From Patescibacteria group bacterium (GTDB lineage: Bacteria > Patescibacteriota > Patescibacteriia > UBA1558 > GWA2-36-10), in NCBI GenBank assembly GCA_018819405.1, contig JAHJQF010000001.1:907377-971376 (forward strand): a stretch of DNA of 64,000 bases. Reading direction: 5' to 3'. Positions 40,147 through 63,096 of the stretch are shown here, one piece after another. A program made the position numbers and the translations under genes. Each line of letters begins with the position of its first letter. Position 1 is the stretch's first letter. Below the pieces are notes generated by a model that was not told the DNA's origin, did not search any database, and saw only the letters and a list, made by a program, of their open reading frames with translations.

Positions 40147-41334
40147 TTACTTTAAAATTTTGGTTACTACAGCAGCACCAACAGTACGTCCGCCTTCGCG
40201 GATAGCAAACTTGGATTTTTCTTCCAAAGCTACTGGAGCTATCAATTTGATCTTCAAATTGATAGTATCTCCTGGCATAACCATCTCAGTACCTTCTGGT
40301 AATTCAACTTCACCGGTTACATCAGTAGTACGGATATAAAACTGTGGCTTGTATCCTTTGAAAAATGGAGTGTGACGTCCACCTTCTTCTTTACTCAAGA
40401 TATAAGCTTCAGCTTCAAATTCAGTGTGAGGAGTGATAGAACCTGGTTTGGCCAAAACTTGTCCACGTTGTATTTCATCTTTTTTGGTACCACGTAACAA
40501 AATTCCAGCATTGTCTCCTGCCCTACCTTCTTCCAACTGCTTATTAAACATCTCAATACCAGTAACAACAGTCTTGCTAGTGTCTTGTAGACCGACCATT
40601 TCAACTTCGTCATTTAGTTTGACAACTCCTCTTTCAATACGTCCGGTAACTACAGTACCACGACCTTCAATTGAAAAGATGTCTTCAATAGGCATTAAGA
40701 ATGCGTGTTCAGTATCACGTTTTGGTTCTGGGATATACTCATCCAAAGATTTGATCAAATCCAAAATTGGTTTTGAATCATCACCTGATGGATTTTCCAA
40801 GGCTTTCAAAGCGGTACCTCTGATAATTGGAGTTTCATCGCCTGGGAATTCATATTTCTTTAACAAATCTCTAATTTCTTCCTCAACTAGATCTACGAGT
40901 TCTGGATCATCAACTTGGTCCATTTTGTTCAAAAATACAACAATGTATGGGACACCAACCTGACGAGCAAGTAAAATATGTTCTCTAGTCTGAGGCATTG
41001 GACCATCAGCAGCTGATACTACCAAAATAGCACCATCCATCTGAGCGGCACCAGTAATCATGTTTTTGACATAGTCAGCGTGACCTGGACAGTCTACGTG
41101 AGCGTAATGTCTTTTTTCTGACTCATACTCAACATGAGCAGTGGCAATAGTAATACCACGTTCTCTTTCTTCAGGAGCATTATCAATCTGATCAACGTCC
41201 TTTTGCTGAGCAACACCACCATGAGCGGCTAATACCTTCAAAATGGCGGCAGTCAGGGTAGTTTTACCGTGGTCTACGTGACCAATAGTACCCACATTTA
41301 TGTGTGGCTTTTCTCTTTTAAAAGCTTCTGCCAT
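40147..41334 (-). CDS. tuf: elongation factor Tu (start at [18 protein letters not shown]-track start is an upstream TTG)
   Basis: [11 protein letters not shown]-loop. Full EF-Tu. Confidence 0.9.
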
Positions 41335-41435
41335 TTTTATTCTTTCTCCTATGATAGCCCCCCGCAAAAATGTGGGGTTTGTGAGCCAGCTATCTTGATT
41401 AAAATTACTTAATTATCGTTATTTAAAACACACAG

Positions 41436-41521: not shown

Positions 41522-41887
41522 CTAGTCAACTGGCTCTATATAATACCTATCATCATCACCCACTGCTGACTTATCAACAGTAGTTTTGTCATCAGTATTT
41601 TCTGGCTTTTTTTCATCCTTTCTTAGAGTGTCCACACGGAAATTTTCCAGGCTATAGTCATCTAAGTGCTCTTGAGAAGCTTTCCAGACGGCAATGTCAC
41701 GATTTATCTTGTCCAAAAGCTCGTCTTCAGACAATCCTTTGACTGATGACGGACCAGCCAACAAAGCCTCATATTCTTTGACGGTCATGATTACATAGGG
41801 TTCATGGTTGTCTGACAAAACAATAACTTTGTCACCGGTTTTGGCCGCTAGTTCCAAAACTTTGTCTATTTGTTTGTAATTTGGCAT
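41522..41887 (-). CDS. hypothetical protein, N-terminal Phd/YefM-antitoxin-like fold, acidic C-terminus
   Basis: KVIVLSDNHEPYVIMTVKEYEALL resembles the YefM/Phd N-domain. Weak. Confidence 0.3.
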   Translation of the reverse strand: MPNYKQIDKVLELAAKTGDKVIVLSDNHEPYVIMTVKEYEALLAGPSSVKGLSEDELLDKINRDIAVWKASQEHLDDYSLENFRVDTLRKDEKKPENTDDKTTVDKSAVGDDDRYYIEPVD

Positions 41888-42069: not shown

Positions 42070-42098
42070 TTGACAAAATAATAAATATGTGATATAAT
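42070..42098 (+). promoter_or_regulatory. consensus sigma70 promoter TTGACA-17-TATAAT
   Basis: Perfect hexamers and spacing. Confidence 0.7.
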
Positions 42099-42324
42099 AT
42101 TACATTACTATAAAAAGTTCTTTAAAAGTGGGATTTCCCAGGTACAAACTTGGAGGTTGGAGAGCAGATAAACTAGCTAGATTTTATTGGGTCTCTACTC
42201 AACAATTTCAGCCTAATTATCTGGTCTAAGCTGGCTTCGGCCAAAAGCTAGACATCTCTCCTCCAAATTTGTGCCTGGAAAAATACTCCTGGTACAGCTC
42301 AACCCATCCAAGGAAGGAAACGCC

Positions 42325-42471
42325 ATGTTGGTACTGGCTTACTGCCTCTGCAAGCAGGCTCCCCGAGCCGCGGCCAAGGTCTCCTACCTGATGCTCTGCA
42401 CCATGGTCGGCCCGACCCTGATTCTCCTGTCCGCCATGATCGCAGGGATGATCTACTCCCTGCACCTCTAA
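42325..42471 (+). CDS. 48-aa hydrophobic Cys-rich peptide (MLVLAYCLCKQAPRAAAKVSYLMLCTMVGPTLILLSAMIAGMIYSLHL) with strong SD AAGGAAGGAAA
   Basis: SD 6 nt upstream. One predicted TM helix. GC-rich codons. Confidence 0.4.
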   Translation: MLVLAYCLCKQAPRAAAKVSYLMLCTMVGPTLILLSAMIAGMIYSLHL

Positions 42472-42586
42472 AGATCTGAACACAACACCAACACCCGCCA
42501 GGATCCCACCTTTCAAAGACCTATCTCGAATAGGCCCCCTCCTAAGTCTATAAAAAATTATAGATTTGGGAGGGATATAATAAGGC

Positions 42587-42625
42587 CCGGTAATTATTTA
42601 CCGGTCTTTATTTTATTTTTAAAAA
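42587..42625 (+). terminator. intrinsic terminator CCGGTAA ttat TTACCGG plus long T-run
   Basis: Direct read. Confidence 0.75.
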
Positions 42626-42984: not shown

Positions 42985-43013
42985 TTGACAAAAACTATAC
43001 AATATACTATGAT
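42985..43013 (+). promoter_or_regulatory. sigma70 promoter TTGACA-17-TATGAT. Downstream near-palindrome TGTCAATTGATA in the leader
   Basis: Direct read. Confidence 0.6.
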
Positions 43014-43069: not shown

Positions 43070-43480
43070 ATGCCACTTGAATTTCAGCTTTTGTCACTGA
43101 TTGAGCTACGCCAATACGTGGCTCAGCTCAACGAAAATTCTCATCCCGGGTTTGTGTTTCGTATCTTGGTACAGTGTCTGTGCCAGATAAAGGCCGGTGC
43201 TTGCTGGCCACAAATTGGCACGACCCAAGTCGACATGCAGACGCTGATGCGCGTCTGTCACAAAAACCAGGTGAGACGTGAACTTCAGGCCATCCTGGCC
43301 AAAAATGAGTACACACCGCTGAATTTTGATGACGCGGAAAAACTGAGCTGCATCATGGAGGAGATCCAGCAATGTCACATCAATTGGAATGATCTTCCTG
43401 TATCTGAGAATGTATTGAGACAAATCATCAATATGGCCGCTTGCGGCTATGAACACTGCAATCAGCAAAAAATGGCCTGA
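43070..43480 (+). CDS. 136-aa Cys-rich hypothetical protein (about 50% GC), SD AAGGAG
   Basis: Good RBS. Own promoter and terminator. No recognisable domain. Confidence 0.55.
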   Translation: MPLEFQLLSLIELRQYVAQLNENSHPGFVFRILVQCLCQIKAGACWPQIGTTQVDMQTLMRVCHKNQVRRELQAILAKNEYTPLNFDDAEKLSCIMEEIQQCHINWNDLPVSENVLRQIINMAACGYEHCNQQKMA

Positions 43481-43724: not shown

Positions 43725-44237
43725 TCACCTGAGGGTGAAAACATGAGGCAAAAGCACCCCGATACTTGCCCGAAAAACAAAGCCCTCGGTGTTGACCGAC
43801 AGAATCGGCACTCTATTGTCGCCGTTGCAGTGCTCGCTGATAATCTGACGACAATCGCCACATGATGTGACCATACTACTGACATTAATCTTGCCCAGAT
43901 CAATGTCTTTGGGTGTCAGATTGAACTCACGATCAGCAGTCGCACCAGCCAAAACCAACATCCTAATATTGAGTTGTCCGCTGACTACCATGGCCGCTAG
44001 AGCTGAACGCTCGGCATGAGTGACTTTGTAGTGGGCGTACTCCACATTGCATCCGTAAAAAACGACGTTACTCTGACTGACCAGAGCACAGCCCACCTTG
44101 AAACCGGAATACGGAGCATAGGCATTACGCCTAGCATTGATAGCCTGCTGAACCAGGCCACGCCCGTCTGCTGACGACATGTCAGAAAAATGGAAAATTT
44201 CCACATCCCCGACCCGATGAATCTTGCTTGCCTGCAT
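43725..44237 (-). CDS. cdd: cytidine deaminase (start at MQASKIHRV with SD GAGGAGG)
   Basis: NAYAPYSGFKVGCAL, GCNVEYAHY, HAERSAL, SCGDCRQII zinc-ligand motifs. About 50% GC. Confidence 0.8.
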   Translation of the reverse strand: MQASKIHRVGDVEIFHFSDMSSADGRGLVQQAINARRNAYAPYSGFKVGCALVSQSNVVFYGCNVEYAHYKVTHAERSALAAMVVSGQLNIRMLVLAGATADREFNLTPKDIDLGKINVSSMVTSCGDCRQIISEHCNGDNRVPILSVNTEGFVFRASIGVLLPHVFTLR

Positions 44238-44320
44238 GACTAGCCTCCTCGTTTGTGCCATATACCTCTGGACAGAACTAAACTGGCTATAAATTAGCAA
44301 TAAAATATTTTTCTGTCAAA

Positions 44321-44349
44321 CCGCGTTAGAAAAATTTTTTCTAACGCGG
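44321..44349. repeat. palindrome CCGCGTTAGAAAAA/TTTTTTCTAACGCGG (CCCGTTAGAAAT-family variant)
   Basis: Direct read. Confidence 0.7.
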
Positions 44350-44350
44350 T

Positions 44351-44405
44351 AAACAAAAAACCCAGTCCTTCCTGCCTACCGATAGGCAAAGCACGAAGAA
44401 CTGGG
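44351..44405 (-). terminator. fusA terminator (CCCAGTCCTTC...GAAGAACTGGG plus U-run on minus strand)
   Basis: Direct read. Confidence 0.7.
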
Positions 44406-44419
44406 TAAATTTATATAAT

Positions 44420-46513
44420 CTAATTTTTCTTAATTATCTCTTCAGCAACATTGTGAGGCACCTGAGCATATTTTTTGAACTCCATAGAATAACTAGCTCG
44501 TCCCTGAGTCATAGATCTTAGAGCGGTAGCATAACCAAACATCTCAGATAGTGGCACTTCGGCATCAATAACCTTGGCACCAGCTCTATCGCTCATTTCA
44601 TGAACCTGTCCTCTCTTGGAATTCAAATCACCAATCACATCGCCCATGTATTGTTCGGGAGTGACTACTTCTACCGCCATGACTGGCTCTAAAATAACCG
44701 GGGTAGCTTTTTTGAAAGCTTCTTTAAAAGCCATTGAACCAGCTACTTTAAAAGCAGCTTCAGAAGAGTCAACATCATGGTAACTTCCATCATAAACAGC
44801 TACTTTAACATCTTGTATTTGATAACCAGCCAATATTCCGTTGTCCATGGTTTCTTTGATACCTTTTTCAATAGCCGGAATATATTCTTTTGGAATAACG
44901 CCACCTTTGATTTCTTCTTCAAACTCAAATCCAGTACCTCTTTCAAGTGGTTCCAATCTCAACCAACAATGACCATACTGACCACGACCACCAGATTGTT
45001 TGATATATTTTCCTTCTGCCTCGGCAGTAGCCGTAATGGTTTCTTTGTAAGCGACTTGTGGGGCACCGACATTGGCCTCAACCGAAAACTCACGCTTCAT
45101 ACGATCCACAATAATATCCAAATGAAGCTCTCCCATACCACCAATAATAGTTTGATTTGTTTCTTCATCTGATCGGACAGTAAAGGTTGGGTCTTCTTCG
45201 GCTAATTTTGCCAGAGCCATACCCATCTTTTCTTGATCAGCTTTGGTTTTTGGTTCAACTGCCACATGAATAACTGGTTCTGGGAAATCCATACTTTCAA
45301 GGACTACTTCTCTTTTTTCATCACAAAGAGTCTGACCAGTAGTTGTATCTTTTAGGCCAACAACAGCTACGATATCACCAGTAAATATTTCAGATACTTC
45401 TTCACGAGAGTTGGCGTGCATTCTAAGAATTCTTCCAATCCTCTCTCTTTTCTCGGTATTGGCATTAAAAACATAAGAGCCGGATTTTAATGTACCAGAA
45501 TAAACTCTTACAAAAGTCAGTTTACCAACATAAGGATCAGTCGCCACTTTAAAAGCCAAACCTACAAAAGGATCCTCATCTTTAGCCAAGACCGTGATAT
45601 GATTTTCTTCATTTCTTGGTTCGTGTCCGACAATTTCTGGTACATCAAGTGGAGATGGTAAATACGCAACAATGGCATCTAGCAAAAACTGAACTCCTTT
45701 GTTTTTTAAAGCTGAACCGACAAAAACTGGCACAATCTTGTTGCCAATAACGGCCTGTCTCAAAACTTTTTTCAAATCTTCAATAGCTGGTTCTTCTCCG
45801 CCAAGATATTTTTCCATCAAGGCTTCATCGTTTTCTACAATCGCTTCAATAAGTTTTCCACGGAATTCTTCTACCTTATCTTTCATGTCAGCTGGTACTT
45901 CACGTTTTTCAAATTGTTTACCGTCTTCATCAAGATAATACCAAGCTTCTCTTTCTAAAAGATTGATAATGCCTTCAAAAGTTTCAGCTGCTCCAATTGG
46001 CAACTGCATTGGATGGGCAGATTTTGTCAATCTATCATGAATAGTTTTTAAATCATAATAAAAATCCGCACCCATTCTATCCATCTTGTTTACAAAGGCT
46101 AGGCGGGGCACATGATATTTGTCAGCCTGTCTCCAGACAGTCTCCGACTGTGGTTCTACTCCAGCTACTCCATCAAAAACAATCACACCACCATCAAGCA
46201 CGCGCAATGATCTTTCTACTTCTACAGTAAAATCTACGTGACCTGGGGTATCAATAATATTGATATTGGCTTTGTCACCACCCAACCAGTCAGGTAAATT
46301 CCAAAAACAAGTAGTCGCGGCAGAAGTAATGGTAATACCTCTTTCCTTTTCCTGTTCCATCCAATCCATTTCAGCTTGCCCTTCATGGACTTCACCGATT
46401 TTATGTTTTTTTCCTGTATAAAAAAGAATACGCTCCGTCACGGTAGTCTTACCAGCATCAATATGAGCAATAATTCCAATGTTTCTTATTTTTTCAAGTG
46501 GATGTCGAGGCAT
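44420..46513 (-). CDS. fusA: elongation factor G
   Basis: AHIDAGKTT, full-length EF-G. Confidence 0.95.
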
Positions 46514-47512: not shown

Positions 47513-47546
47513 ATTTAACTTAAAAAATAAAAAATACGACTGTTCT

Positions 47547-47576
47547 TCCCGCGTAGCGGGATCCCGCTACGCGGGA
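47547..47576. promoter_or_regulatory. perfect 30-bp GC palindrome TCCCGCGTAGCGGGA|TCCCGCTACGCGGGA in the rpsL leader, followed by a U-run on the mRNA strand (attenuator/terminator or operator)
   Basis: Direct read. Confidence 0.6.
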
Positions 47577-47638
47577 AAAGTCCCCAATAAAATAGCATAA
47601 AAAAATATATAAGTCAAGAATAATAGCCAAAATTAATA

Positions 47639-47681
47639 CCCCTCCCCCTTAGATTTTGTGAATCTTTGGAGGAGGGGCGGG
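47639..47681 (-). terminator. hairpin CCCCTCCCCC...GGAGGAGGGG after the GC-rich lipoprotein gene
   Basis: Direct read, one mismatch. Confidence 0.5.
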
Positions 47682-47706
47682 TTTCAGGCCCTAATGAGAG
47701 ACCTGA

Positions 47707-48360
47707 CTAGTCGATCAGGACGTAGTCGGTGATGTCGCCGTTGTAGACATCGCGGACCTTGATATTGTCCTCATCCCAGGCTCCGACAAAGGTCGGAGGC
47801 GTGCCGAACTGAGTGTTGTTGCGCACTTCAAACCAGGCGTACTCGCCGCGAGTAGTCCAGGTCGGGTAATCCCCTCCGATCTTGACGTGATCACCGAATG
47901 GCACACCATTCGATTCTCCCGTGTAGCCCCAAGGATAGCCCGGCTCAGTGCTGTAGACAGCCCCTAAACCACTGTCGACGAGAGTCCAGCCATTGACATC
48001 GCTGGTGGTCACGGTGAAAGGTAGCTGGTAGCCCCGAGCTTCGCCAGAAGGATAGACCTTCTGGTAAAACATCACTGCCCAGTAGCCAGTGGCGTAACCG
48101 TAGGGCGAACGGGAGCGAGTCAGAATGATTGTGTCAGGATCGGCAGTTTTCAGAACGGACTGAATACCCTGCCAGGTCGAACTGTCCTCCGCACTCCGAG
48201 AGGCCACGTTCATGACATCCTCGAAGCCGCCGCTCTGGTTGGTCGCGTTGACCTGATCGACGATCGAGGTCTCCGGAGCCGTGGTCTGGTCCATGTTGCT
48301 GCAGCCGGTCAGCCAGGCGAGGCAAACCAGCATTAAAGTGATTGCGATGATTCGCTTCAT
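47707..48360 (-). CDS. GC-rich (about 58%) lipoprotein (lipobox LTGCS), unknown function
   Basis: Signal peptide MKRIIAITLMLVCLAWLTGCSN. Protein-like composition. GC content strongly atypical for the genome. Confidence 0.6.
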   Translation of the reverse strand: MKRIIAITLMLVCLAWLTGCSNMDQTTAPETSIVDQVNATNQSGGFEDVMNVASRSAEDSSTWQGIQSVLKTADPDTIILTRSRSPYGYATGYWAVMFYQKVYPSGEARGYQLPFTVTTSDVNGWTLVDSGLGAVYSTEPGYPWGYTGESNGVPFGDHVKIGGDYPTWTTRGEYAWFEVRNNTQFGTPPTFVGAWDEDNIKVRDVYNGDITDYVLID

Positions 48361-48640
48361 GGTTAGACTTCTCCTTGTCTCAGATACAATAGTTTTGCCT
48401 CATTGAGGCGCTTCGAAAAACTGCAGGTGTGAATACACTGCTGTTCATGCTCTTACGGGTAGCGCAACCCCCCTTAACGCTTTTTAACTCCTTTACAAGG
48501 CAAATCAATTTCCATGTTCAAGGCAAGTTGTCGAGCAAAAGTTGCGTGAAATCTATAAATTAATCCTGTGACCAGGAAAAAATGCAACGAACTTTTACAA
48601 ACAATTATAAAAAATACACTAAAAATAAATTCTTGTCAAT

Positions 48641-48716: not shown

Positions 48717-48827
48717 TCAGGCGATCGTCACCTCGCTCGCCGTCGTCTTCTTGACGGTCTTCTTCTTGGTAGCCTTCTTGGCGACCATCTTCATCTGCAT
48801 CTGGACACTGGGTCTTCGTCGATTCAT
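48717..48827 (-). CDS. 36-aa lysine-rich peptide MNRRRPSVQMQMKMVAKKATKKKTVKKTTASEVTIA with SD AAGGAGGA
   Basis: Strong SD 8 nt upstream. Flanked by terminators on both sides. The upstream 43 codons of the track ORF are AT-rich non-coding-like. Confidence 0.45.
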   Translation of the reverse strand: MNRRRPSVQMQMKMVAKKATKKKTVKKTTASEVTIA

Positions 48828-48929: not shown

Positions 48930-49006
48930 AATAAAAAAGAGCCCCCGCGGAAGCACCTCACTGGGCGCGATACTGAGATCGCGTGCAGAGGGTGCCCCGC
49001 GGGGGC
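48930..49006 (-). terminator. compound GC hairpin terminator (GCCCCCGCGG...CCGCGGGGGC) plus U-run
   Basis: Direct read. Confidence 0.6.
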
Positions 49007-49082: not shown

Positions 49083-49175
49083 TTACTGGGTCTCCAGCCC
49101 AGGGGTGACAGGCGTGGTCATCGGAGGCGCGTCGGACGCCTCGGCAGGAACATCGGGCAGGGTCCAGAAGAGCAT
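49083..49175 (-). CDS. 30-aa peptide MLFWTLPDVPAEASDAPPMTTPVTPGLETQ (SD GGAAAGGAG). Start overlaps the upstream stop (ATGATG)
   Basis: Paralogous N-terminus to 49175..49330. Confidence 0.3.
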   Translation of the reverse strand: MLFWTLPDVPAEASDAPPMTTPVTPGLETQ

Positions 49176-49330
49176 CATCGCTCCTTTCCGGCAACTGCCG
49201 AAGGTTGTCTGTAGCGCTCGGTCCATACGCCGGCCTCAACGGCGCGGTACCACCTGTGGCACGAACTGTTTCCGACGAGCTTAGTCGCCGGGTTCGCACC
49301 CGAATCGTCGGGAAGGAGCCAGTAGAGCAC
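49175..49330 (-). CDS. 51-aa peptide (GTG start) VLYWLLPDDSGANPATKLVG... (SD GAAAGGAG)
   Basis: DNA around the start about 80% identical to the next ORF start. The SD region is also palindromic, so it may be RNA structure instead. Confidence 0.25.
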   Translation of the reverse strand: MLYWLLPDDSGANPATKLVGNSSCHRWYRAVEAGVWTERYRQPSAVAGKER

Positions 49331-49415
49331 TGCTTCTCCTTTCGACTGGTTGTGTAGCTCCGAAGTGGAGCTACATGGTGCGGCTAGCTAGCCGCCGGGG
49401 CGCTGGCGCCCAGGT

Positions 49416-49523
49416 CTAGCTGCCGCGCCGCCGGCCGCGGACGTCGGTCGTGGAGGTGTTGCCCATGAGCACGAAATAGTTCGTGTAAGTGGCGACCGGA
49501 CGGCCGCGGATGTGGATCGACAT
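49416..49523 (-). CDS. 35-aa peptide MSIHIRGRPVATYTNYFVLMGNTSTTDVRGRRRGS (SD GGGAGGA). Member of the M-x-I-R-x-R-G-R-P short-ORF family
   Basis: SD 6 nt upstream. DNA about 80% identical over the first 10 codons to 54092..54136. Confidence 0.4.
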   Translation of the reverse strand: MSIHIRGRPVATYTNYFVLMGNTSTTDVRGRRRGS

Positions 49524-49678
49524 TGGGATCCTCCCGTCGTTGCATCATGGCAGGTTTTGTCCAGACTAGCTGGACGCTACATCCCACTTGGGGATACCAT
49601 TTTCCGTTGCTTAGACTTGTTGCGTATTCACTAGGAAATGATCGGGCGACTAAAAATATTTTTTAATCACGATTTTGT

Positions 49679-49706
49679 ATTATAGCACAAATAAAAAATT
49701 TGTCAA
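49679..49706 (-). promoter_or_regulatory. sigma70 promoter TTGACA-16-TATAAT whose -35 is embedded in the palindrome TTTGTCA-n8-TGACAAA (49699-49720)
   Basis: Direct read on the minus strand. Confidence 0.65.
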
Positions 49707-49739
49707 GAGCCCCTGACAAACCTTTTAAAAATACCAAAA

Positions 49740-50378
49740 ATGGGTATTTTATATAAATCTAGAAATAAAATTGATAAAAAAGTCAAAAATATGCCCAAAA
49801 ATATTAATGTTCATAAAATTATCCAAAATTATCAAAACTATCAATATCCAAGGCCCATTTATAGTAAATTTACGCTTAAATTCGTCAAAATGAGCTGGCA
49901 AAAAGGCAAAAAGCACTTTGGAGCCATCAAGTGGTGGAATAGGTATAAGATTAAAAACTCCCAATATAAGATTGACTAATATCAAATAAAACAAAAATAT
50001 AAAAACTAGATTATCAATAGGCAAAAACTTGAGCAAAAAATTAGCAATTATTATAAATAAAGCTACATTAATAAAGTTGGAAAGCGGACCAGCCAGTGAC
50101 ACAAAAGCATCTCCCCAACGACGCCAACGAAGATTATAAGTATTGACCGGTACTGGTTTGCCCCAACCAAAACCGGCGAAAAGGAGCATCAAGGTACCCA
50201 AAAACTCCATATGAGCCAAAGGATTGAGAGTCAAACGACCATTTTGACTAGGGGTATTGTCTCCCAAATAATGAGCCGCCAAAGCATGAGCAAACTCATG
50301 AATAGTTAAAGCATATATAATAGATAAAATAACTATTAAAAATATTTTTGGATCGCTAAATAATGTGGAAATTAACAT
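49740..50378 (-). CDS. M50-family site-2 protease (HEFAH zinc motif), AT-rich native gene
   Basis: HEFAHALAAH. Multi-TM. Confidence 0.7.
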
Positions 50379-50467
50379 ATATTATTGACAAAATTATAAA
50401 TTGATGGTAGCATAATCAAAGCTTAATAATAGTATTATAGCCTAATTAACATAGAAATTCAAAGTAT

Positions 50468-50659
50468 ATGGCCAAAGTATGTGAAATTTGTAATAGAGGT
50501 AAACTAAGTGCTAATACCCGCAGTCATTCCAATATTGCTAGCAAGAGAACCATGAAGCTGAATTTGCAATCCAAAAAAATTGGCAACAGCAAAATGACTG
50601 TTTGCACTTCTTGTTTGAAAACTCTAAACAAACTTAGAAAAAATCAAACTATAAAATAA
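50468..50659 (+). CDS. rpmB: 50S ribosomal protein L28
   Basis: MAKVCEICNRGKLSANTRSHSNIASKR. Confidence 0.85.
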   Translation: MAKVCEICNRGKLSANTRSHSNIASKRTMKLNLQSKKIGNSKMTVCTSCLKTLNKLRKNQTIK

Positions 50660-50673
50660 ATTATTTTTTTCAA

Positions 50674-50712
50674 CCGTCCCCTCATAGCAGGGGGCGGTTT
50701 TTTAATTTTTTG
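50674..50712 (+). terminator. rpmB terminator (CCGTCCCC..GGGGCGG plus T-run)
   Basis: Direct read. Confidence 0.7.
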
Positions 50713-50765
50713 AATAAAAATAAAGCGGGCGCCTGATGACATACATGATGCAAAAGTGGCGCCCG
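50712..50765 (-). terminator. terminator of the GC-rich gene (GCGGGCGCC...GGCGCCCG plus U-run)
   Basis: Direct read. Confidence 0.6.
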
Positions 50766-50785
50766 GAAAAGGGTCTTGGGCCAAA

Positions 50786-51085
50786 CTACCTGCTACTAGC
50801 GCAGGCCATGACGATCTTCTTGATCAGTCTCCTGACAGGGTGAGCCCTGATCAGCTCATCGCCGATGATCTGGTAGTGTCTTCCCTCACCATGAGGATCG
50901 AGATAGACCAGACGGGTCCGCGTATCCCAGATGGGCCAAGGTTGGCCTGCTCTGCGCAGACGACCGGTCGAGACATAGTCTCTTCCATCATAGCTCTGCT
51001 CTTCCACCAGTTCAACCGATGAAAAATTGTTGGGAAAAGGCACCCAACGGCGTCCGTCAATCGTCGCCCCAGCTTGTTTCGACAC
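50786..51085 (-). CDS. GC-rich (about 55%) hypothetical protein, about 100 aa, GTG start with SD GGAGG
   Basis: SD plus GTG. Own terminator. No recognisable domain. Confidence 0.4.
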   Translation of the reverse strand: MSKQAGATIDGRRWVPFPNNFSSVELVEEQSYDGRDYVSTGRLRRAGQPWPIWDTRTRLVYLDPHGEGRHYQIIGDELIRAHPVRRLIKKIVMACASSR

Positions 51086-51486
51086 AAGTAACCTCCAGTG
51101 TTTGTTTGGGCCAATATATGTGGCTGATAAAGCCACGGGATGAACAAAATATATTTTACAATACCACTCTTTGCAATTTTGGTCAATTATAAAAACCCCT
51201 GGCCTAAACTCGGGGTAAAAACAAAAAGGCGTTGTTATAGTTTGAAAAACTAATAAAACACCTTTTTGCTAGCCATTTTGTTGCATGAATTTGTGCCTTA
51301 GTAATTAATGACTATTGTAGCTTTGCTTTTTTATATGTATAACCCCTTTGTAAAAGGGTGGTGCTCGCAGACTAAAGGCCCCAGCCCAAGACAATATAAA
51401 GCACCAAGGCAATAATGTTGTAGAGTTACATATGTTAAAAAGAAGCTACATTTATAATATAACATCTTTTAAAAATCATTGCAAAA

Positions 51487-51513
51487 CCCGTTAGAAATAT
51501 TATTTCTAACGGG
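51487..51513. repeat. perfect palindrome CCCGTTAGAAAT att ATTTCTAACGGG
   Basis: Direct read. Confidence 0.8.
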
Positions 51514-51521
51514 TCAAAAAC

Positions 51522-51551
51522 AAACCAAAAAAAGAGCTAGACTTAGCTCTT
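51522..51551 (-). terminator. ndk terminator (AGAGCTAgactTAGCTCT plus U-run)
   Basis: Direct read. Confidence 0.7.
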
Positions 51552-51584
51552 TTTAAATTGATTATTTTAAAACTCGTCGAGAGA

Positions 51585-52094
51585 TTATTTTTCCAACAGT
51601 GTATGCCTAGTATAATCAGGCTGATGATCACATAATTCAAAATCCTGAAACCAATAACTTATCTCCATCTTAGCTTCTTCTACGCTTGAAGAGGCGTGAA
51701 TGAGATTAAAAACTGCTTTGTTGCTTTTGTCAGCATGAGAAAAAGACAAGTGAGCATAATCACCTCTGATAGTACCTGGAGCCGCACTTTTTGGCTCAGT
51801 CTCTCCGACCATCTTGCGTACAATGGTCACTGCCTCCACGCCTTCGATAGCAATGGCTACTACTGGTCCGGAAGTAATCATCTCCACCATCATATCTCTT
51901 ACTTTTTGTCCGCGTCTCTTTGCCAAATCTTCACTATAATGTTTGAGGGCAGTATCTTGATCAGACAGGACAAGTTTTAGTCCGGCAATTTTGAGTCCAG
52001 TTCTTTCAAAACGATGTAGTATTTCCCCTATCAAGCCTCTGTTGATAGCATCGGGTTTGAGTAATATTAAACTTCTTTCTAATTTATCATTCAT
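51585..52094 (-). CDS. ndk: nucleoside diphosphate kinase (C-terminally extended)
   Basis: LILLKPDAINRGLIGEIL... Confidence 0.85.
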   Translation of the reverse strand: MNDKLERSLILLKPDAINRGLIGEILHRFERTGLKIAGLKLVLSDQDTALKHYSEDLAKRRGQKVRDMMVEMITSGPVVAIAIEGVEAVTIVRKMVGETEPKSAAPGTIRGDYAHLSFSHADKSNKAVFNLIHASSSVEEAKMEISYWFQDFELCDHQPDYTRHTLLEK

Positions 52095-52115
52095 ATTTAC
52101 AAATTTATAAAATAA

Positions 52116-52496
52116 TTATTTAGCCATTTTCTTTTTAACTTCTGCCACTACTTCCGATGGGGTAATATTTGCCTTGACTAAATAGCCAACTGACCCCAAC
52201 TCTTTACCACGCTCAATATCCTCATCCTGCCCTAGGTTGGTCAACAACATTACAGGAATATCTTTGGTAGCGGCATCCTCCTTGAGAGATTTCAAAACTG
52301 AAAAACCATCCATCTTTGGCATAATAATATCAAGTAAAATAAAATCCGGATGAATAGTTTTGGCTTTTTCCAAACCGTCTGCTCCATCAAGAGCCTTGGT
52401 CAAATCAAAGCCTTCGTTGTTAAACTTTACTTCATACATATTGGCGAGCATTTCCTCGTCCTCAATAAGCAAAATTTTTGTTTTATTATCTGCCAT
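52116..52496 (-). CDS. single-domain response regulator (CheY-like receiver). Start at MADNKTKILLIEDEE
   Basis: DEEM...LDIIMPKMDG...K receiver residues. The upstream 41 codons of the track ORF run into GC-rich terminator hairpins. Confidence 0.75.
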   Translation of the reverse strand: MADNKTKILLIEDEEMLANMYEVKFNNEGFDLTKALDGADGLEKAKTIHPDFILLDIIMPKMDGFSVLKSLKEDAATKDIPVMLLTNLGQDEDIERGKELGSVGYLVKANITPSEVVAEVKKKMAK

Positions 52497-52560
52497 AACG
52501 CTTAAAAATTTAATGTTTATGCCTATATTATATGCTAAGTGAATATAAAAATCAAGGTAA

Positions 52561-52592
52561 TAAAAAGAGGGGGCAACGCACGCGCTGCCCCC
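52561..52592 (-). terminator. terminator GGGGGCAACGCACGCGCTGCCCCC plus U-run for the GC-rich lipoprotein gene
   Basis: Direct read. Confidence 0.65.
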
Positions 52593-52672
52593 TGGCGAGC
52601 GTCCCATCTTTGGGTTCAATTGGGGCAGTGTCTGCCCCTTTTATAGCTCGCTGAGACCCGCCGGTTTTGGTG

Positions 52673-53167
52673 TTAGGCCGCCATCAGGCGGCCAGGCCTA
52701 TTGCCGGGCGGGACGTCTTCCCTGCCGCCGTAATGGCCGAGGATGGAGCTCTTGTTCATCGTCACCTGGTAGTAGTCCCAGATGGCATCACCGGCCGAAG
52801 CCGACACACACAGTGCGCTCAGTGAGCTGGGAATCTTGATATATACCGGATCCAGATTGCTGACGACGCTGGAGCTCTTGTAGTAGAGCCCAACGGCATC
52901 ACCGGCCGAAGCCGCCACACACAGTGCGCTCATGTTACAGGACTCGTTGATCTTCTTCAGGACGACGGTCGTAGTGTTCGCCGTCGTGTCCATGTGATTG
53001 GCGATCGCCACGGCGATGTCCGTGCCGTCGGTGACCGCATACCACAGGTCGTTCTTCGCGTAACTGACCTGGCTGGCCATCGCGCCGCAAGCAAGCAGCA
53101 TGATGACGGCCACCAGAGCCAGAGCGGCGCCCATCATCAGACGCGAGGGTCCACGAATGTGATGCAT
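52673..53167 (-). CDS. GC-rich (about 62%) lipoprotein with internal duplicated motif SALCV(A/S)ASAGDA(V/I)..YY
   Basis: Signal peptide and lipobox ALALVAVIMLLACGAMA. SD GGGAGGAAG. Confidence 0.55.
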   Translation of the reverse strand: MHHIRGPSRLMMGAALALVAVIMLLACGAMASQVSYAKNDLWYAVTDGTDIAVAIANHMDTTANTTTVVLKKINESCNMSALCVAASAGDAVGLYYKSSSVVSNLDPVYIKIPSSLSALCVSASAGDAIWDYYQVTMNKSSILGHYGGREDVPPGNRPGRLMAA

Positions 53168-53409
53168 GTCTTCCTCCCTGAATGGGGACTAAAATGACTA
53201 CCTAAGGTAGCCGGCGAATGATACTCGGTTAAAAAACCTCCTTGGCTTTTGGTCTCACTATAATGAGTATACTTCCATAGGAAATATACTCGTGAAATTG
53301 TACAATACATATTTGAACATACAATATTTTGTAAATTCTGTCAATAACTATAAAAAATTCTACCCTGACCCAAGCTACTAAGTTTTATAGCTAATCTTCA
53401 TCACTTTTG

Positions 53410-53467
53410 GATAAAATCTATAAAAGAAAACCGGGCGAAACTCACTATGTGAAGCTTGTCTCGCCCG
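53410..53467 (-). terminator. cassette unit-1 terminator (CCGGGCGA..TCGCCCGG plus U-run)
   Basis: Direct read. Confidence 0.6.
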
Positions 53468-53661
53468 GTCAGGTGGTTGGCCCGAAGGCCACCGGATCGC
53501 TGTGCGATCATTTTTTGAGCCATTGGGCTCGAAGAAAAGAATATTGGGATTTTTGGAGATGGGCCTTGAGTCGCTTAAGTGCCCGGTCAGTTGGCCCGAT
53601 TACTCTGGCCGAGCTAAAGGTGGAATCGAAGCTTCATCGGCGACCTCGCTGGTCAGGCGGT

Positions 53662-53739
53662 TCATGCGGCCTTCGTGGCTGTACGGCGACGCAGCTCGGC
53701 GACGGTCTCCCTCGGGGGTCCAGTGTTTCGAATCTTCAT
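53662..53739 (-). CDS. 25-aa peptide MKIRNTGPPRETVAELRRRTATKAA (SD GGAAGGAG). Short-ORF family member
   Basis: SD 7 nt upstream. RBS region homologous to 49524-49545 and 54137-54160. Confidence 0.35.
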   Translation of the reverse strand: MKIRNTGPPRETVAELRRRTATKAA

Positions 53740-53876
53740 GATCAGACTCCTTCCTCGAGTCGCTTCAGAAAATTCCCGCCAAAATTAGCGGCATAGGAGA
53801 TGTGGCTCCTTCCAATATCGGCTGGGCTCCTGCCCTCCCCTATAGACCAACAGATCTAGCGAGAACGGCTGTTTTT

Positions 53877-53905
53877 ATGATACCAAGTGCCCTAAAATTA
53901 GTCAA
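53877..53905 (-). promoter_or_regulatory. sigma70 promoter TTGACT-17-TATCAT inside the conserved ATTGACTAATTT box
   Basis: Direct read. Confidence 0.55.
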
Positions 53906-53915
53906 TATAATAATC

Positions 53916-53969
53916 TAAACAAAAAAATACCGGACAAAACTCGCTCTTGGAGCTAAGTCTTGCCCGGCT
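53916..53969 (-). terminator. cassette unit-2 terminator (CCGGACAA..CTTGCCCGG plus U-run)
   Basis: Homologous to 53430-53467. Confidence 0.55.
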
Positions 53970-54091
53970 TGCATCGCTGTAGATAGTCTCACCTGACCCC
54001 AGGTAATATTCCCCTACGAGGGGATCGTGAGAGTTGACTGGTTCGTAAGCGAAGGTCATCCTCTCCAACTAACGCTGGGAACTTTAGGAAG

Positions 54092-54136
54092 TCAGGCGTT
54101 GTCCCCGATGGGACGTCCACGGATGCGGATAGCCAC
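54092..54136 (-). CDS. 14-aa peptide (GTG) MAIRIRGRPIGDNA (SD GAAAGGAG). Truncated paralog of 49416..49523
   Basis: 17/20-nt identity with the start of 49416..49523. Confidence 0.3.
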   Translation of the reverse strand: MAIRIRGRPIGDNA

Positions 54137-54204
54137 GATATGGCTCCTTTCGTCGAGTCACTTCATACGTCGTTCCCACCATTACTGGCAGGAGTGGCTC
54201 TCTT

Positions 54205-54233
54205 AAGATATCAATCGCTATTAAATTAGTCAA
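54205..54233 (-). promoter_or_regulatory. promoter TTGACT-17-TATCTT (ATTGACTAATTT box, second copy)
   Basis: Direct read. Confidence 0.4.
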
Positions 54234-54239
54234 TAAATT

Positions 54240-55037
54240 TTAAAAACTAAAACTAATAGTACCTAAGTCCTGAGTATTTTCTATTTCACACCCTACTTTT
54301 TTCAATCTTTCTATTGCTTCCTGATGCGGGTGGCCAAATTTATTGTCCAAGCCAGATTGAATAATACAAAATTCGGGCTGTACAGCCTGCAAAAACTCTA
54401 GTGATGAAGAATATTTACTACCATGATGGCCGACTTTTAGATACTGGGAATTTAAATCAAAACCACCGGACAATAACTTTTGTTCCCCTTCTATTGGCAA
54501 ATCTCCCATCAATAAAACATTTTTATCTTTATAGCTTAGTTTTATAACTACTGAGTTTTCATTGAAATCTTCATGCCAGTAGTCAGCTAAAAGAACCCTA
54601 AAATATAAATCATCGGAAAACATAAAACTCTCGCCTGCTTGTACAATTTGTGGTTGGATATTATTTTCTTGTAATTTTTGGGTAAAGATATTATACAAAA
54701 AATGATCGGGCTGGTGATTACTCACCAAAACATGTTTTACTTCGTACTTTTCTAAAAGCTCTACAAAACCCATCATATGATCATCATGCCAATGAGTAAT
54801 AATCAAATAATCAATCGTGTCCTCCCACCAAGGAAGTTTGTCGGCCATTTGGGACAAGAGCAGATTGTCCGGCCCGCCGTCTATCAAAATATTTTGACCA
54901 TCAGGAGTACGAATTAAAATTGCATCACCTTGCCCAACATCCAAAAAATTAATCGCTAGTTTATTTTCTATTCTATAAAAAGAAAAAAATAAAGCTGACA
55001 AAATTATTAGGGTTATAAAAAATATTGTTTTATTCAT
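54240..55037 (-). CDS. ComEC C-terminal metallo-beta-lactamase domain protein (separate ORF with N-terminal TM)
   Basis: THWHDDHMMG motif, GHHGSKYSS. Confidence 0.75.
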   Translation of the reverse strand: MNKTIFFITLIILSALFFSFYRIENKLAINFLDVGQGDAILIRTPDGQNILIDGGPDNLLLSQMADKLPWWEDTIDYLIITHWHDDHMMGFVELLEKYEVKHVLVSNHQPDHFLYNIFTQKLQENNIQPQIVQAGESFMFSDDLYFRVLLADYWHEDFNENSVVIKLSYKDKNVLLMGDLPIEGEQKLLSGGFDLNSQYLKVGHHGSKYSSSLEFLQAVQPEFCIIQSGLDNKFGHPHQEAIERLKKVGCEIENTQDLGTISFSF

Positions 55038-55182: not shown

Positions 55183-55473
55183 TCACAAAAAATCATCGCT
55201 AATATCCTCCCATTTTTTATTAACCGATTCCACTAAATTGTTCTTCCAATCTCTATGCCAATTTTTTAATTGTTTTTCTCTACAAATAGCATCATGCATA
55301 TGCTGATATACCTCATAATAAACCAGCTTTATAACATTATATGGCTTAGTAAAACCAATAATATCTTTATTTTTGTGTTGTTTTATCCTATTTATTAAAT
55401 CGCCAGTGACACCAATATACATAACATTATTATTTTGATTAGTTAAAATATAAACATAATATTCTTTATTCAT
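55183..55473 (-). CDS. GIY-YIG nuclease family protein (paralog of 3770..4057)
   Basis: YYVYILTNQNNNVMYIGVTGDLINRIKQHK. Confidence 0.8.
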   Translation of the reverse strand: MNKEYYVYILTNQNNNVMYIGVTGDLINRIKQHKNKDIIGFTKPYNVIKLVYYEVYQHMHDAICREKQLKNWHRDWKNNLVESVNKKWEDISDDFL

Positions 55474-56782
55474 AATTTTGAGGCTTAATTATAAAAGTCA
55501 AAATAAACATAAAACAAAGAAAAAAAATCATATAAAAACTACTGAAATCTTGTACTTCAATATAAGCCCTGGGTAATTGGGAAAGATAAAAAGATAAGAC
55601 AACAATTATCTTTAAAATAATAAAAAGCGGCCAAGCTAATAATTTTGCCAAAAATGGCCAAAAACCAAACCCCGCTAAAAACAGACTAAATACCAAAACC
55701 AATGGCAAAAAGGGCAAAATCAAAAAATTAGCCAAGGGCGCTACAATTGACACAATACCAAAATAATAAACAATCAAAGGCCAGGTAAATATTTGAGCGG
55801 CTAGGGTCACAGACATTACTTCTCTCAACTTAAATTTTTGGGGTACAAAAAACAAAACTTTCTGGAAAAATTTTACATAATAAAGCAAACCCAAGACTGC
55901 CAAAAATGACAATTGAAAACCTATATCATATAAAAGTAAATATGGATTGAGTAAGACAAATATATCAGCAGCCAAAACAAGGCTATATATAGATTCTGTA
56001 TCCCTGCCCAAAAAAGGCCCTAACATTAATATAGATAGCATCAAACTGGCTCGAACTGCCGAAGCTGGAAATCCTATCAAATATAAATATAAAAATAATA
56101 TTAAAATTAAAAACCAAAAGGCTTTTTTTCTAGACAAACCAATAGCAAACAAAAAACTCCTGACTAGCCAAACTATAATAGCCATATGCAGTCCGGAAAT
56201 AGCTACCACATGACTCAGGCCCACTTGAGCAAAAATATTTCTGGTATCACCAGGTATTTCCCGACGACTGGCCAGAAGCATAGCCTTGGCTAGTGATGAA
56301 GCCGGCTCACGAAGATAAATGTCAAGATTTTTCCAAAAATAATTTTTGGCTTGAAAAATATAAAAAGAAATACCTTTATCTTGAGAAATATATTTTACCT
56401 TTGGACGAAAACAAGTAGCATATATATTGTCCTTGGCTAAATATTTATCATAAAAAAATGTTTTGCCTTCATCATCCTCTATTGGCTCTGGTTTGTAAAC
56501 TTTGCCTGATAGTTCTAAAACATCACCATAATAATACTCTGGATACAAAGGAATATAGACTAAAATATTTCCGGAAAAATTATCTAAATCCAAAGGCTCT
56601 ACTAATATATTCCAACCATCTATCTTTTTGTCGGTATTTATTACTTTAGCTTTAAAACTATAAAAATTATCAAAAATAAAACCGGGATTATTTTCCCGAT
56701 TGTCAAAATATAGCAACCAAACAAAATTGAGTGCCAAAAAAATAAAACTAACCCCTAAAAAGCCTTGGCTTTTGCTCATCAA
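55466..56782 (-). CDS. comEC: ComEC N-terminal (DUF4131/OB) plus competence membrane domain
   Basis: GLSHVVAISGLHMAII and SFLAV motifs. Stop overlaps the GIY-YIG start. Confidence 0.75.
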   Translation of the reverse strand: MMSKSQGFLGVSFIFLALNFVWLLYFDNRENNPGFIFDNFYSFKAKVINTDKKIDGWNILVEPLDLDNFSGNILVYIPLYPEYYYGDVLELSGKVYKPEPIEDDEGKTFFYDKYLAKDNIYATCFRPKVKYISQDKGISFYIFQAKNYFWKNLDIYLREPASSLAKAMLLASRREIPGDTRNIFAQVGLSHVVAISGLHMAIIVWLVRSFLFAIGLSRKKAFWFLILILFLYLYLIGFPASAVRASLMLSILMLGPFLGRDTESIYSLVLAADIFVLLNPYLLLYDIGFQLSFLAVLGLLYYVKFFQKVLFFVPQKFKLREVMSVTLAAQIFTWPLIVYYFGIVSIVAPLANFLILPFLPLVLVFSLFLAGFGFWPFLAKLLAWPLFIILKIIVVLSFYLSQLPRAYIEVQDFSSFYMIFFLCFMFILTFIIKPQNYE

Positions 56783-62810: not shown

Positions 62811-63096
62811 GCCATCTACCTCCTTGAAAAGAACAAACTTTGAAACTATCAAAAAAACTCTCACTAAGGAGAGTGGTGACAAAATTATTAAGCTTTAATA
62901 AATTCATCCTTTTGCTCCTTAGGCAAAGAATAAAACTCAGGTGTCGGACTTGTTCTCCCTACATTGGAGACTTACCGTAGCTAGGACTGCGGAGGATTTG
63001 CACCTCACTTCCCTGATTGAATTGTCAAAGTGAATTTATCTTAACACAGAGTAAAACGATTGACAACTGTCTGTGACCTTATACATTGTTGATAAG

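Follow-up and report, generated by a model that had tools for sequence, protein, structure and literature searches.

In the Mollicutes, the vlp, vsp and vsa families consist of clustered genes that have a conserved 5' region and N-terminus, with a prolipoprotein signal and a phase-variation switch, followed by divergent bodies that contain repeats. Phage genomes carry morons (HK97/HK022 type), which are pieces of added DNA with deviating GC content and with a promoter and terminator of their own (PMC3594210). The reuse of a promoter ahead of unrelated genes has also been documented (PMC3488235, PMC3575422). Here we describe GC-rich cassettes that resemble each of these systems in some respects, in a stretch of 64,000 nt from a Patescibacteria group bacterium (contig JAHJQF010000001.1; by "the window" we mean this whole stretch, whose locus tags include KKH39_04955 and KKH39_04970). 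About ten such cassettes lie in the gaps of a housekeeping gene block, spread over 12 kb. Three of them, which we call units 1, 2 and 3, had been singled out in a first-pass annotation as paralogous copies of one cassette made of a promoter, a short open reading frame (ORF), a GC-rich body and a terminator. The wider set went unmentioned there, and the three-unit family is a minor part of it.

We tentatively interpret the locus, from comparison of its sequences, as an array of moron-like chromosomal mini-gene cassettes in which reused expression modules surround unrelated payloads, with unit 1 coding for micro-proteins and units 2 and 3 either expressing a micro-ORF or decaying. We regard this interpretation as plausible, if somewhat short of probable. 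Patescibacteria (the Candidate Phyla Radiation, CPR) have genomes of ~1 Mb, little known regulation, and many unexplained lineage-specific genes. If correct, the interpretation would show in concrete terms how a reduced genome can acquire new small genes and switch them on, and it would provide a set of micro-proteins and surface proteins as candidates for interaction with a host.

Units 2 and 3 share expression signals around unrelated interiors

All three units are on the minus strand and are predicted to follow one plan: a strong sigma-70-type promoter, a leader of 60-150 nt, a strong Shine-Dalgarno (SD) sequence, a micro-ORF, a GC-rich tail and an intrinsic terminator. The promoter of unit 3 (54205-54233; TTGACT, 17-nt spacer, TATCTT; 9 of 12 consensus positions, TG-extended) starts 7 nt past the stop codon of an MBL-fold gene. 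Downstream of it, the SD sequence AAAGGAG (54150-54144) precedes a 14-codon ORF, VAIRIRGRPIGDNA, that runs from GTG at 54136 to TGA at 54092 (SD and ORF together, 54092-54150). The GC-rich body that follows (53968-54091) does not resemble the body of unit 2 and carries no significant coding signal, and the unit ends in an intrinsic terminator (53921-53967; CCGGGCAAGAC...GTTTTGTCCGG and then a T run). Unit 2 lies in tandem with it and has a promoter at 53877-53905 (TTGACT, 17-nt spacer, TATCAT; 10 of 12, TG-extended), a leader at 53740-53876 with the SD sequence GGAAGGAG at 53754-53747, a 25-codon ORF, MKIRNTGPPRETVAELRRRTATKAA, starting at 53739 (53662-53739), a GC-rich body with an AT-rich middle that is unrelated to that of unit 3 (53469-53661), and an intrinsic terminator (53422-53468). 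The unit 2 leader also includes a second, degenerate copy of the -10 and initial transcribed segment (53819-53785), as well as a hairpin with a U-rich stretch after it (53791-53776).

Much of what the first-pass annotation had seen at the level of individual signals was borne out. Its three promoters (49706-49679, 53905-53877 and 54233-54205) are exactly where it placed them, match sigma-70 promoters well and carry the TG of an extended -10; the -35 box that it described as conserved in two copies, ATTGACTAATTT, is exact in both; and its ORFs of 35, 25 and 14 amino acids are open frames behind strong SDs. The proposal that the three units are paralogous at the DNA level fared less uniformly. 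In local alignments scored against 200 dinucleotide shuffles, units 2 and 3 are clearly related (z = 10), as are units 1 and 3 (z = 6.4), and in these two pairs the similarity exceeds that of the shuffles. Units 1 and 2 show no relationship (z = -0.7). The ribosome-binding block that was thought to be common to all three is present in unit 3 (GACTCGACGAAAGGAG) and, one base shorter, in unit 2 (GACTCGAGGAAGGAG), and is missing from unit 1. Similarly, the reported identity of about 80% over the first ten codons is found only between units 1 and 3.

The tandem pair aligns in three separate blocks. The promoters are identical at 22 of 29 positions (76%), including 11 of the 17 in the spacer; the segment from the SD to codon 10 is identical at 34 of 54 (63%); and the terminators agree in 37 of 48 aligned columns (77%), with one G-C to A-U double change that preserves the stem. 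In contrast, the GC-rich interiors (53469-53704 and 53968-54100) cannot be aligned, either as DNA or in any of the nine frame combinations; the DNA alignment score is 8.0, compared to a shuffle mean of 9.1. Since even the loosely constrained promoter spacer is still identical at 11 of 17 positions, divergence between the two units is not saturated, and uniform drift after a duplication therefore does not explain a pattern in which the interiors are unrelated. Our inference is that, between signal modules that stayed conserved, the interiors underwent replacement or rearrangement and did not simply drift apart. In sequence terms, then, the expression signals are related and the cassettes as wholes are not. 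The modules would have spread by tandem duplication and recombination, with reuse of promoters and gene starts.

Unit 1 is a predicted operon of three micro-proteins

The promoter of unit 1 (49679-49706; TTGACA, 16-nt spacer, TGcTATAAT) matches the consensus at 12 of 12 positions and has an extended -10 TG. The unit had been taken to end near 49400, with a terminator homologous to those of units 2 and 3. That homology is confined to the tandem pair; unit 1 has no terminator at 49400 and continues to ~48930, with two more micro-ORFs on the way. The first ORF, P1 (49416-49523, start at 49523, strong SD), codes for 35 amino acids, MSIHIRGRPVATYTNYFVLMGNTSTTDVRGRRRGS, among which an (I/V)RGR motif is repeated. 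P2 (51 aa, VLYWLLPDD...; 49175-49330) has its own SD, and P3 (31 aa, MMLFWTLPD...; 49083-49178) has an SD and first eight codons that are paralogous to those of P2 (72% identity over 36 nt), the remainder of the two ORFs being unrelated. Hairpins between P1 and P2 (49331-49415) are not followed by a U run; the terminator at the end of the unit (48930-48954) is a hairpin at 48954-48941 plus a T run.

To score coding potential, we trained a codon model on the remaining cassette ORFs, applied it to the one left out, and compared the result with shuffles. The cassette ORFs show in-frame periodicity and positive leave-one-out scores, and the model chooses the correct frame for each of them, the three micro-ORFs of unit 1 included. 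P1, for example, has a log-likelihood ratio (LLR) of +11.2 in frame and negative values out of frame, and a GC content at third codon positions (GC3) of 0.85-0.95. Because the model picks the right frame for P1, P2 and P3, unit 1 is a predicted three-cistron operon of micro-proteins.

A counterpart of the unit 1 promoter is present in a related organism. A short metagenome contig (L003, whose M50 peptidase is 67% identical to that of the window) carries an orthologue of a lipoprotein that we describe below, and then a unit whose promoter is identical to the unit 1 promoter at 30 of 31 positions (L003 3001-3031). Its leader differs from that of unit 1 and leads into GGGAGGGATCC-ATG-ATCCAC-CCGC-ATCCGCCG-TAA, an ORF of seven codons. 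The resemblance of this start to the shared gene start in the window is suggestive, and is not significant on its own.

A gene-start module that also heads a larger protein

The similarity between units 1 and 3 consists of one 50-nt block that runs from the SD to codon 10 (38 of 50 identical; 17 of 20 in the core). The 20-mer ATCCRCATCCGYGGMCGTCC, which is the core of this block, occurs twice in the window, where zero occurrences are expected. We distinguish two start modules, ATCCRCATCCGYGG and GAAAGGAG-N6-8-TGCTCTWCTGG. The micro-ORFs of the three units would open with Met-x-Ile-Arg-x-(Arg)-Gly-(Arg)-Pro. A start motif that we defined post hoc, M-x(1-3)-I-[HR]-x(0-2)-G-[RP]?-P with a preceding SD, is present at only 4 of the 5113 SD-preceded starts in ~1.3 Mb, and all four are in the islands of this window: units 1, 2 and 3, and a 164-aa ORF.

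This 164-aa ORF belongs to a fourth cassette with the same N-terminal module, directly downstream of unit 2 (52568-53344, minus strand; promoter 53344-53316, ORF 53167-52673, terminator 52593-52568). The protein begins MHHIRGPSR and continues with a hydrophobic, signal-like and lipobox-like segment ending LLAC|G; its GC3 is 0.78. The idea that the units are copies of a gene start therefore survives in a modified form: what is repeated is an SD plus a Met-x-Ile-Arg-x-Gly-x-Pro module, and this module also stands at the head of an intact protein with a signal peptide. Past codon 9, the units have no remnant similarity to the 164-aa gene. The gene contains a 56-nt direct repeat (52766-52821 and 52877-52932, 88% identical, 111 nt apart) that encodes SALCV(A/S)ASAGDA twice; mutagenesis by a diversity-generating retroelement was ruled out as the source of the differences between the two copies, which are not adenine-specific.

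Around ten GC-rich cassettes in a conserved housekeeping block

The window is 36% GC, compared to the 30% quoted for the genome in the first-pass annotation, and its GC-rich islands are confined to 42.2-54.2 kb. Whole islands are 49-57% GC, and locally they exceed 60%; set against the 36% of the window, their range is 50-63%. Nearly every island is a separate predicted transcription unit with an AT-rich, sigma-70-like consensus promoter, most have a predicted hairpin-plus-T terminator, and two are on the plus strand. The contrast with the native genes is strongest at third codon positions, where EF-G and M50 have a GC3 of 0.27 and the cassette ORFs have 0.71-0.92.

Apart from the cassettes described above, the islands include a lipoprotein cassette directly upstream of the rpsL promoter (47640-48639, minus strand; promoter 48639-48611, 217-aa ORF 48360-47707, GC3 0.71) and a 99-aa cassette (50720-51186, minus strand; promoter 51186-51158, ORF 51085-50786, terminator-like hairpin). 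Promoters are reused in two groups. Units 2 and 3 form one, and the other consists of the lipoprotein cassette together with the 99-aa and 164-aa cassettes; within it, z is 7.8 for the 99-aa and 164-aa promoters, and the other score is 4.7. On the plus strand, one cassette (42070-42604) has a promoter at 42070-42098 (12 of 12), a leader of ~190 nt, an ORF at 42271-42471 and a terminator, and another, extending to 43530, has a promoter at 42985-43013 and a 136-aa ORF (43070-43480). The ORF at 42271-42471 codes for a small, very hydrophobic protein (48 aa from its ATG; GC3 0.78), a layout that recalls type I toxins. A Lys/Thr-rich micro-ORF of 36 aa, MNRRRPSVQMQMKMVAKKATKKKTVKKTTASEVTIA (48717-48827, minus strand; GC3 0.81), is ~1.1 kb upstream of the rpsL promoter, from which the lipoprotein cassette separates it. 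A different genus has a Lys/Thr-rich micro-ORF of 27 aa just upstream of its rpsL promoter (MIVTSKTNKNTTAKKKNGNFGASAAIT; L010 12583-12666, GC3 0.93); at the DNA level the two match weakly (77% across 39 nt; E = 0.002, the database being small), and the likeness may reflect low complexity.

The cassettes interrupt a gene order that is otherwise well conserved. In the window, the block reads ComEC (55466-56782), MBL-fold gene (54240-55037), response regulator (RR), NDK (51585-52094), L28, M50 peptidase (49749-50378), S12, S7, EF-G (44420-46513) and EF-Tu (40147-41367), all on the minus strand except L28. About a dozen related genomes (Komeilibacteria, Nomurabacteria, Falkowbacteria and other metagenome-assembled genomes) retain most or all of the order ComEC-MBL-RR-NDK-...-L28-M50-S12-S7-EF-G. 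The gap between the MBL and RR genes, which includes the RR promoter, is about 100-160 nt in the ten relatives examined, as against 1744 nt in the window, where the RR promoter still adjoins RR and is preceded by an insertion of 1.7 kb that comprises units 3 and 2 and the 164-aa cassette. The gap between M50 and S12 (rpsL) is 94 nt in L005 and L011, 2237 nt in the window, and up to ~6 kb elsewhere.

In the relatives, the M50-to-rpsL gap holds mini-units of its own, each with a promoter, body and terminator, that are lineage-specific and unrelated to one another, some of them GC-rich. Three of these loci contain relatively GC-rich promoter-to-terminator units of 250-400 nt that lack an ORF (L007 2730-3135, L008 10830-11125 and L006 10640-10890); Rfam has no match for them, BLASTN shows no relationship among them, and they may be lineage-specific small RNAs. 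The payloads of the window match nothing in the relatives' loci or elsewhere in the window itself, and in an all-against-all comparison of the mini-units the only match, a weak one, was that of the Lys-rich micro-ORF region of L010 with the 36-aa ORF of the window. With the MBL gene as anchor, a metagenome scan retrieved only relatives with ≤31% identity, and no orthologues of units 2 and 3 were obtained from it.

Origin of the GC-rich payloads

Under the interpretation of moron-like cassettes, the GC-rich payloads would derive from a source of high GC content. The lipoprotein is the payload that can best be followed between organisms, with four distant relatives (a family of five). It is upstream of rpsL in the window and in L101, an AT-rich relative whose copy is 38% identical and lies directly upstream of the rpsL promoter, and it is in the same neighborhood, just downstream of M50, in L003. 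The GC3 of these three copies is 0.71, 0.88 and 0.50, respectively. Another copy, 42% identical to that of the window and with a GC3 of 0.73 among neighboring ORFs at 0.67-0.70, is on L102. Since L102 is as close to the window's lipoprotein as L101 is, the pattern fits repeated import from a high-GC pool. L102 itself (1-1521; ENA ERZ27256828, listed together with L103) is GC-rich and carries four small ORFs that overlap and are tightly packed; the lipoprotein homologue is the first of them. None of its ORFs has a PHROG or Pfam match. L102 may belong to a phage or to another high-GC genome, and only its compact, overlapping ORFs point towards a phage. The lipoprotein also has no match in INPHARED or IMG/VR, and an AlphaFold model of it is unusable (pLDDT 38).

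Orphan genes are usually AT-rich. The cassettes, with their GC3 of 0.7-0.9 against 0.27 in native genes, are the opposite, and this high GC3 would be left unexplained if they were long-resident genes. Positional orthologues keep a GC3 of 0.8-0.9, an oddity that would likewise call for a new explanation: this is so for the lipoprotein and Lys-rich micro-ORF cassettes that precede rpsL in the window, in L101 and in L010, while the GC3 of the genomes concerned is 0.27-0.41.

Several results weigh against the interpretation that we favor. The recurrence of the lipoprotein at M50/rpsL in three lineages fits long residence, with GC-richness maintained, at least as well as recent import, and the Lys-rich micro-ORF of L010 at the same place, with its GC3 of 0.93, counts in the same direction. 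Searches of 5.8 billion sequences with the lipoprotein, 164-aa and 99-aa proteins found no homologue or only a handful, the last two being orphans, and identified no donor. Units 2 and 3 are carried by a single genome. No matches were found in phages, plasmids or IMG/VR (searching phages and plasmids with the DNA of units 2 and 3, and IMG/VR with the motif and promoter patterns). In the region we saw no phage or mobile-element genes and no significant PHROG hits, so we use "moron" as an analogy only; across all cassette ORFs and micro-peptides, searches of Pfam, NCBIfam, PHROG and PADLOC returned only lipoprotein-signal noise. Finally, no segment of unit 2 or unit 3 exceeds the 95th percentile of shuffles in coding score (the unit 2 ORF has an LLR of 10.6, compared to 12.4 at that percentile), and therefore the products of these two units may not be peptides. 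Per codon, the short ORFs of both units score like real cassette ORFs, but they are too short to be judged, that of unit 3 being too short for significance. Under our interpretation, units 2 and 3 would either make Arg-rich peptides of 25 and 14 aa or be decaying members of the set.

It is a considerably bolder proposal, and one we think improbable, that the shell of expression signals is a natural landing pad. Its short homologous arms would capture or exchange foreign GC-rich DNA time after time, and the DNA between them would be expressed at once. In this way, the lineage would acquire micro-proteins and surface proteins in a repertoire that is prone to turnover, beside its most highly expressed genes. 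The DNA could be taken up through the competence apparatus that is encoded next door.

Alternative explanations for the units

Tandem small-RNA (sRNA) paralogues are known in PrrF1/PrrF2 and OmrA/OmrB, and dual-function RNAs in SgrS/SgrT and RNAIII. By this model, units 2 and 3, possibly together with the unit 1 leader, would be sRNA genes, non-coding or dual-function, whose body is a structured RNA and whose short ORF is incidental or secondary. The units do look like such genes in being tandem, separately transcribed (by prediction) and a few hundred nucleotides long, with terminators and in some cases a micro-ORF: they are independent promoter-to-terminator units of 280-480 nt without significant coding signal, GC-rich within an AT-rich genome, and the relatives have ORF-less units of the same kind in the M50-to-rpsL gap. 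They also fold more stably than expected (z = -6.0 for the whole of unit 3, -3.3 for unit 2 and -5.1 for the 5' part of unit 1), but a coding control folds at z = -3.6, so these scores do not discriminate. In known tandem sRNAs it is the functional body that is conserved. Here the bodies of the tandem units share nothing, and the conserved part is exactly the SD and first codons. We found no antisense complementarity to neighboring genes. At gathering and permissive thresholds, Rfam searches of the window, the units and one relative's unit gave nothing relevant, even at E = 10, with only sub-threshold chance hits (E > 0.5) inside the units. Around the start we found no conserved or covarying helix, and none with changes on both sides; the sole compensatory pair is the one in the terminators of units 2 and 3. 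An SD-sequestering hairpin was ruled out across five start regions, where the registers differ and there is no covariation. With unrelated bodies, no such start structure and no Rfam family, the first-pass annotation's proposal of a repeated RNA element is not supported, and we consider sRNA genes of any kind an unlikely, though still serious, explanation.

To about the same degree we doubt that the units are pseudogene stubs, that is, the now non-functional 5' ends of genes that once encoded secreted proteins of the 164-aa type and that lost their bodies through frameshifts, deletions and rearrangement. The N-terminal module does head an intact protein with a signal peptide, the ORF lengths (35, 25 and 14 aa) are erratic, and unit 2 has internal partial duplications. 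If the CCCCC run that unit 2 has at codons 8-9 were one C shorter, an ORF of ~52 codons would open, in a frame that has a local GC3 peak of 0.85. Against this, the promoters, SDs and terminators are still near consensus, the pairing of the terminator stem has been kept through the compensatory change, the frame of P1 is intact with a GC3 of ~0.9 and a positive coding score, and the likeness to the 164-aa gene stops at codon 9.

A role for the short ORFs as leader-peptide attenuators, like those of erm, cat and amino-acid operons, is very unlikely. Translation of, or stalling on, their Arg/Gly/Pro-rich start (R-x-R, G-P-P) would control terminator formation and read-through into downstream genes. 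Like such leaders, the ORFs are very short, have a strong SD, lie upstream of a terminator and are conserved in only a few codons, the first eight or nine, with length left free. R-I-R, R-G-R and G-P-P resemble known stalling-prone motifs, the unit 2 leader has its hairpin and U-rich stretch, unit 1 has two downstream cistrons, and unit 3, unit 2 and the 164-aa gene are in series on one strand. However, units 2 and 3 contain no ORF between the short ORF and their own strong terminator, and hence no regulated gene in the transcription unit, and the next unit has its own promoter; the suggestion that they encode regulatory leader peptides is for this reason not supported. In addition, unit 3 does not conserve the unit 2 leader hairpin as a terminator, we detected neither covariation nor an architecture of alternative pairing, and a nascent chain of nine residues is very short for tunnel-mediated arrest.

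We can scarcely credit the last alternative, that in these units we see the ends or relics of a mobile element (an insertion sequence, a miniature inverted-repeat transposable element or an integron cassette) or products of chance or misassembly: the units are repeated, tandem and unlike the genome in composition, but there are no terminal inverted or attC-like repeats at their ends, no transposase or integrase among the ORFs examined in the region, and no matches in plasmid or phage collections, while the similarities exceed every shuffle, a Logan contig that was assembled independently has the same 7.5 kb in the same arrangement, and an 847-kb JGI contig is a further source of the 164-aa protein.

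Other features of the window

The sole Rfam match in the window is a cobalamin riboswitch (RF00174) at 62919-63050 on the minus strand, with 35.5 bits, over the gathering score. The rpsL 5' leader contains a perfect 32-nt palindrome (47546-47577; TTCCCGCGTAGCGGGA/TCCCGCTACGCGGGAA) between the S12 promoter and the start codon. Terminator-like palindromes after EF-G (44317-44359) and after NDK (51482-51524) are 79% identical over 43 nt (CAAACCGCGTTAGAAAAATTTTTTCTAACGCGG...), and judged by their sequences this pair is a further reused signal module.

Among the GC islands, in the gap between EF-G and EF-Tu, is a gene with a cytidine/deoxycytidylate-deaminase fold (43725-44300, minus strand; PF00383, E = 9e-14) that is ~50% GC, has a GC3 of 0.54 and has its own terminator. 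Strand-asymmetric hypermutation by this neighboring deaminase-like gene was ruled out, the skews of the islands being near zero. Between EF-Tu and the islands, a 121-aa ORF (41522-41887, minus strand) has a weak match to Phd/YefM antitoxins (E = 4.7e-5, under the gathering score).

Comparison with known systems

The first-pass annotation had called the repeated unit undescribed. This holds for the sequences, in that every search with them came back empty, and it does not hold for the architecture, which has known analogues. A first comparison is with the variable lipoproteins of Mollicutes. The likeness lies in a small AT-rich genome, a surface-attached organism, clustered genes whose 5' region and N-terminus are conserved while their bodies diverge and contain repeats, and a 164-aa protein with a signal-like N-terminus and an internal repeat. 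Unlike in the Mollicute families, a signal peptide is present in just one of the four ORFs that bear the module, conservation at the N-terminus extends over only ~9 residues, the promoter spacers have no homopolymer tracts, and we found no invertible repeats and saw no recombinase.

Putative mobile promoters offer a second comparison, since similar promoters precede unrelated sequence both in units 2 and 3 and in the 164-aa, 99-aa and lipoprotein cassettes. With 22 of 29 positions identical, however, the promoters of units 2 and 3 fall short of the very high similarity that published screens applied (PMC3575422), and the case is therefore one of resemblance and not a formal hit. The reuse seen here is also more extensive than that of a promoter, because it continues through the SD and the first 8-10 codons, and in units 2 and 3 it includes the terminator.

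Phage morons provide the third comparison. Like them, the cassettes are extra DNA between genes that are adjacent in relatives, with a GC content unlike that of their flanks; each has its own promoter and factor-independent terminator, as predicted from consensus scans and folds; and their genes are small and often code for membrane proteins, lipoproteins or secreted proteins. They differ from morons in lying in a bacterial chromosome between ribosomal and other housekeeping genes, not in a prophage, with no phage genes nearby. They also differ in that their GC content is higher than that of the host instead of lower, and in that several of them share promoter, gene-start and terminator modules.

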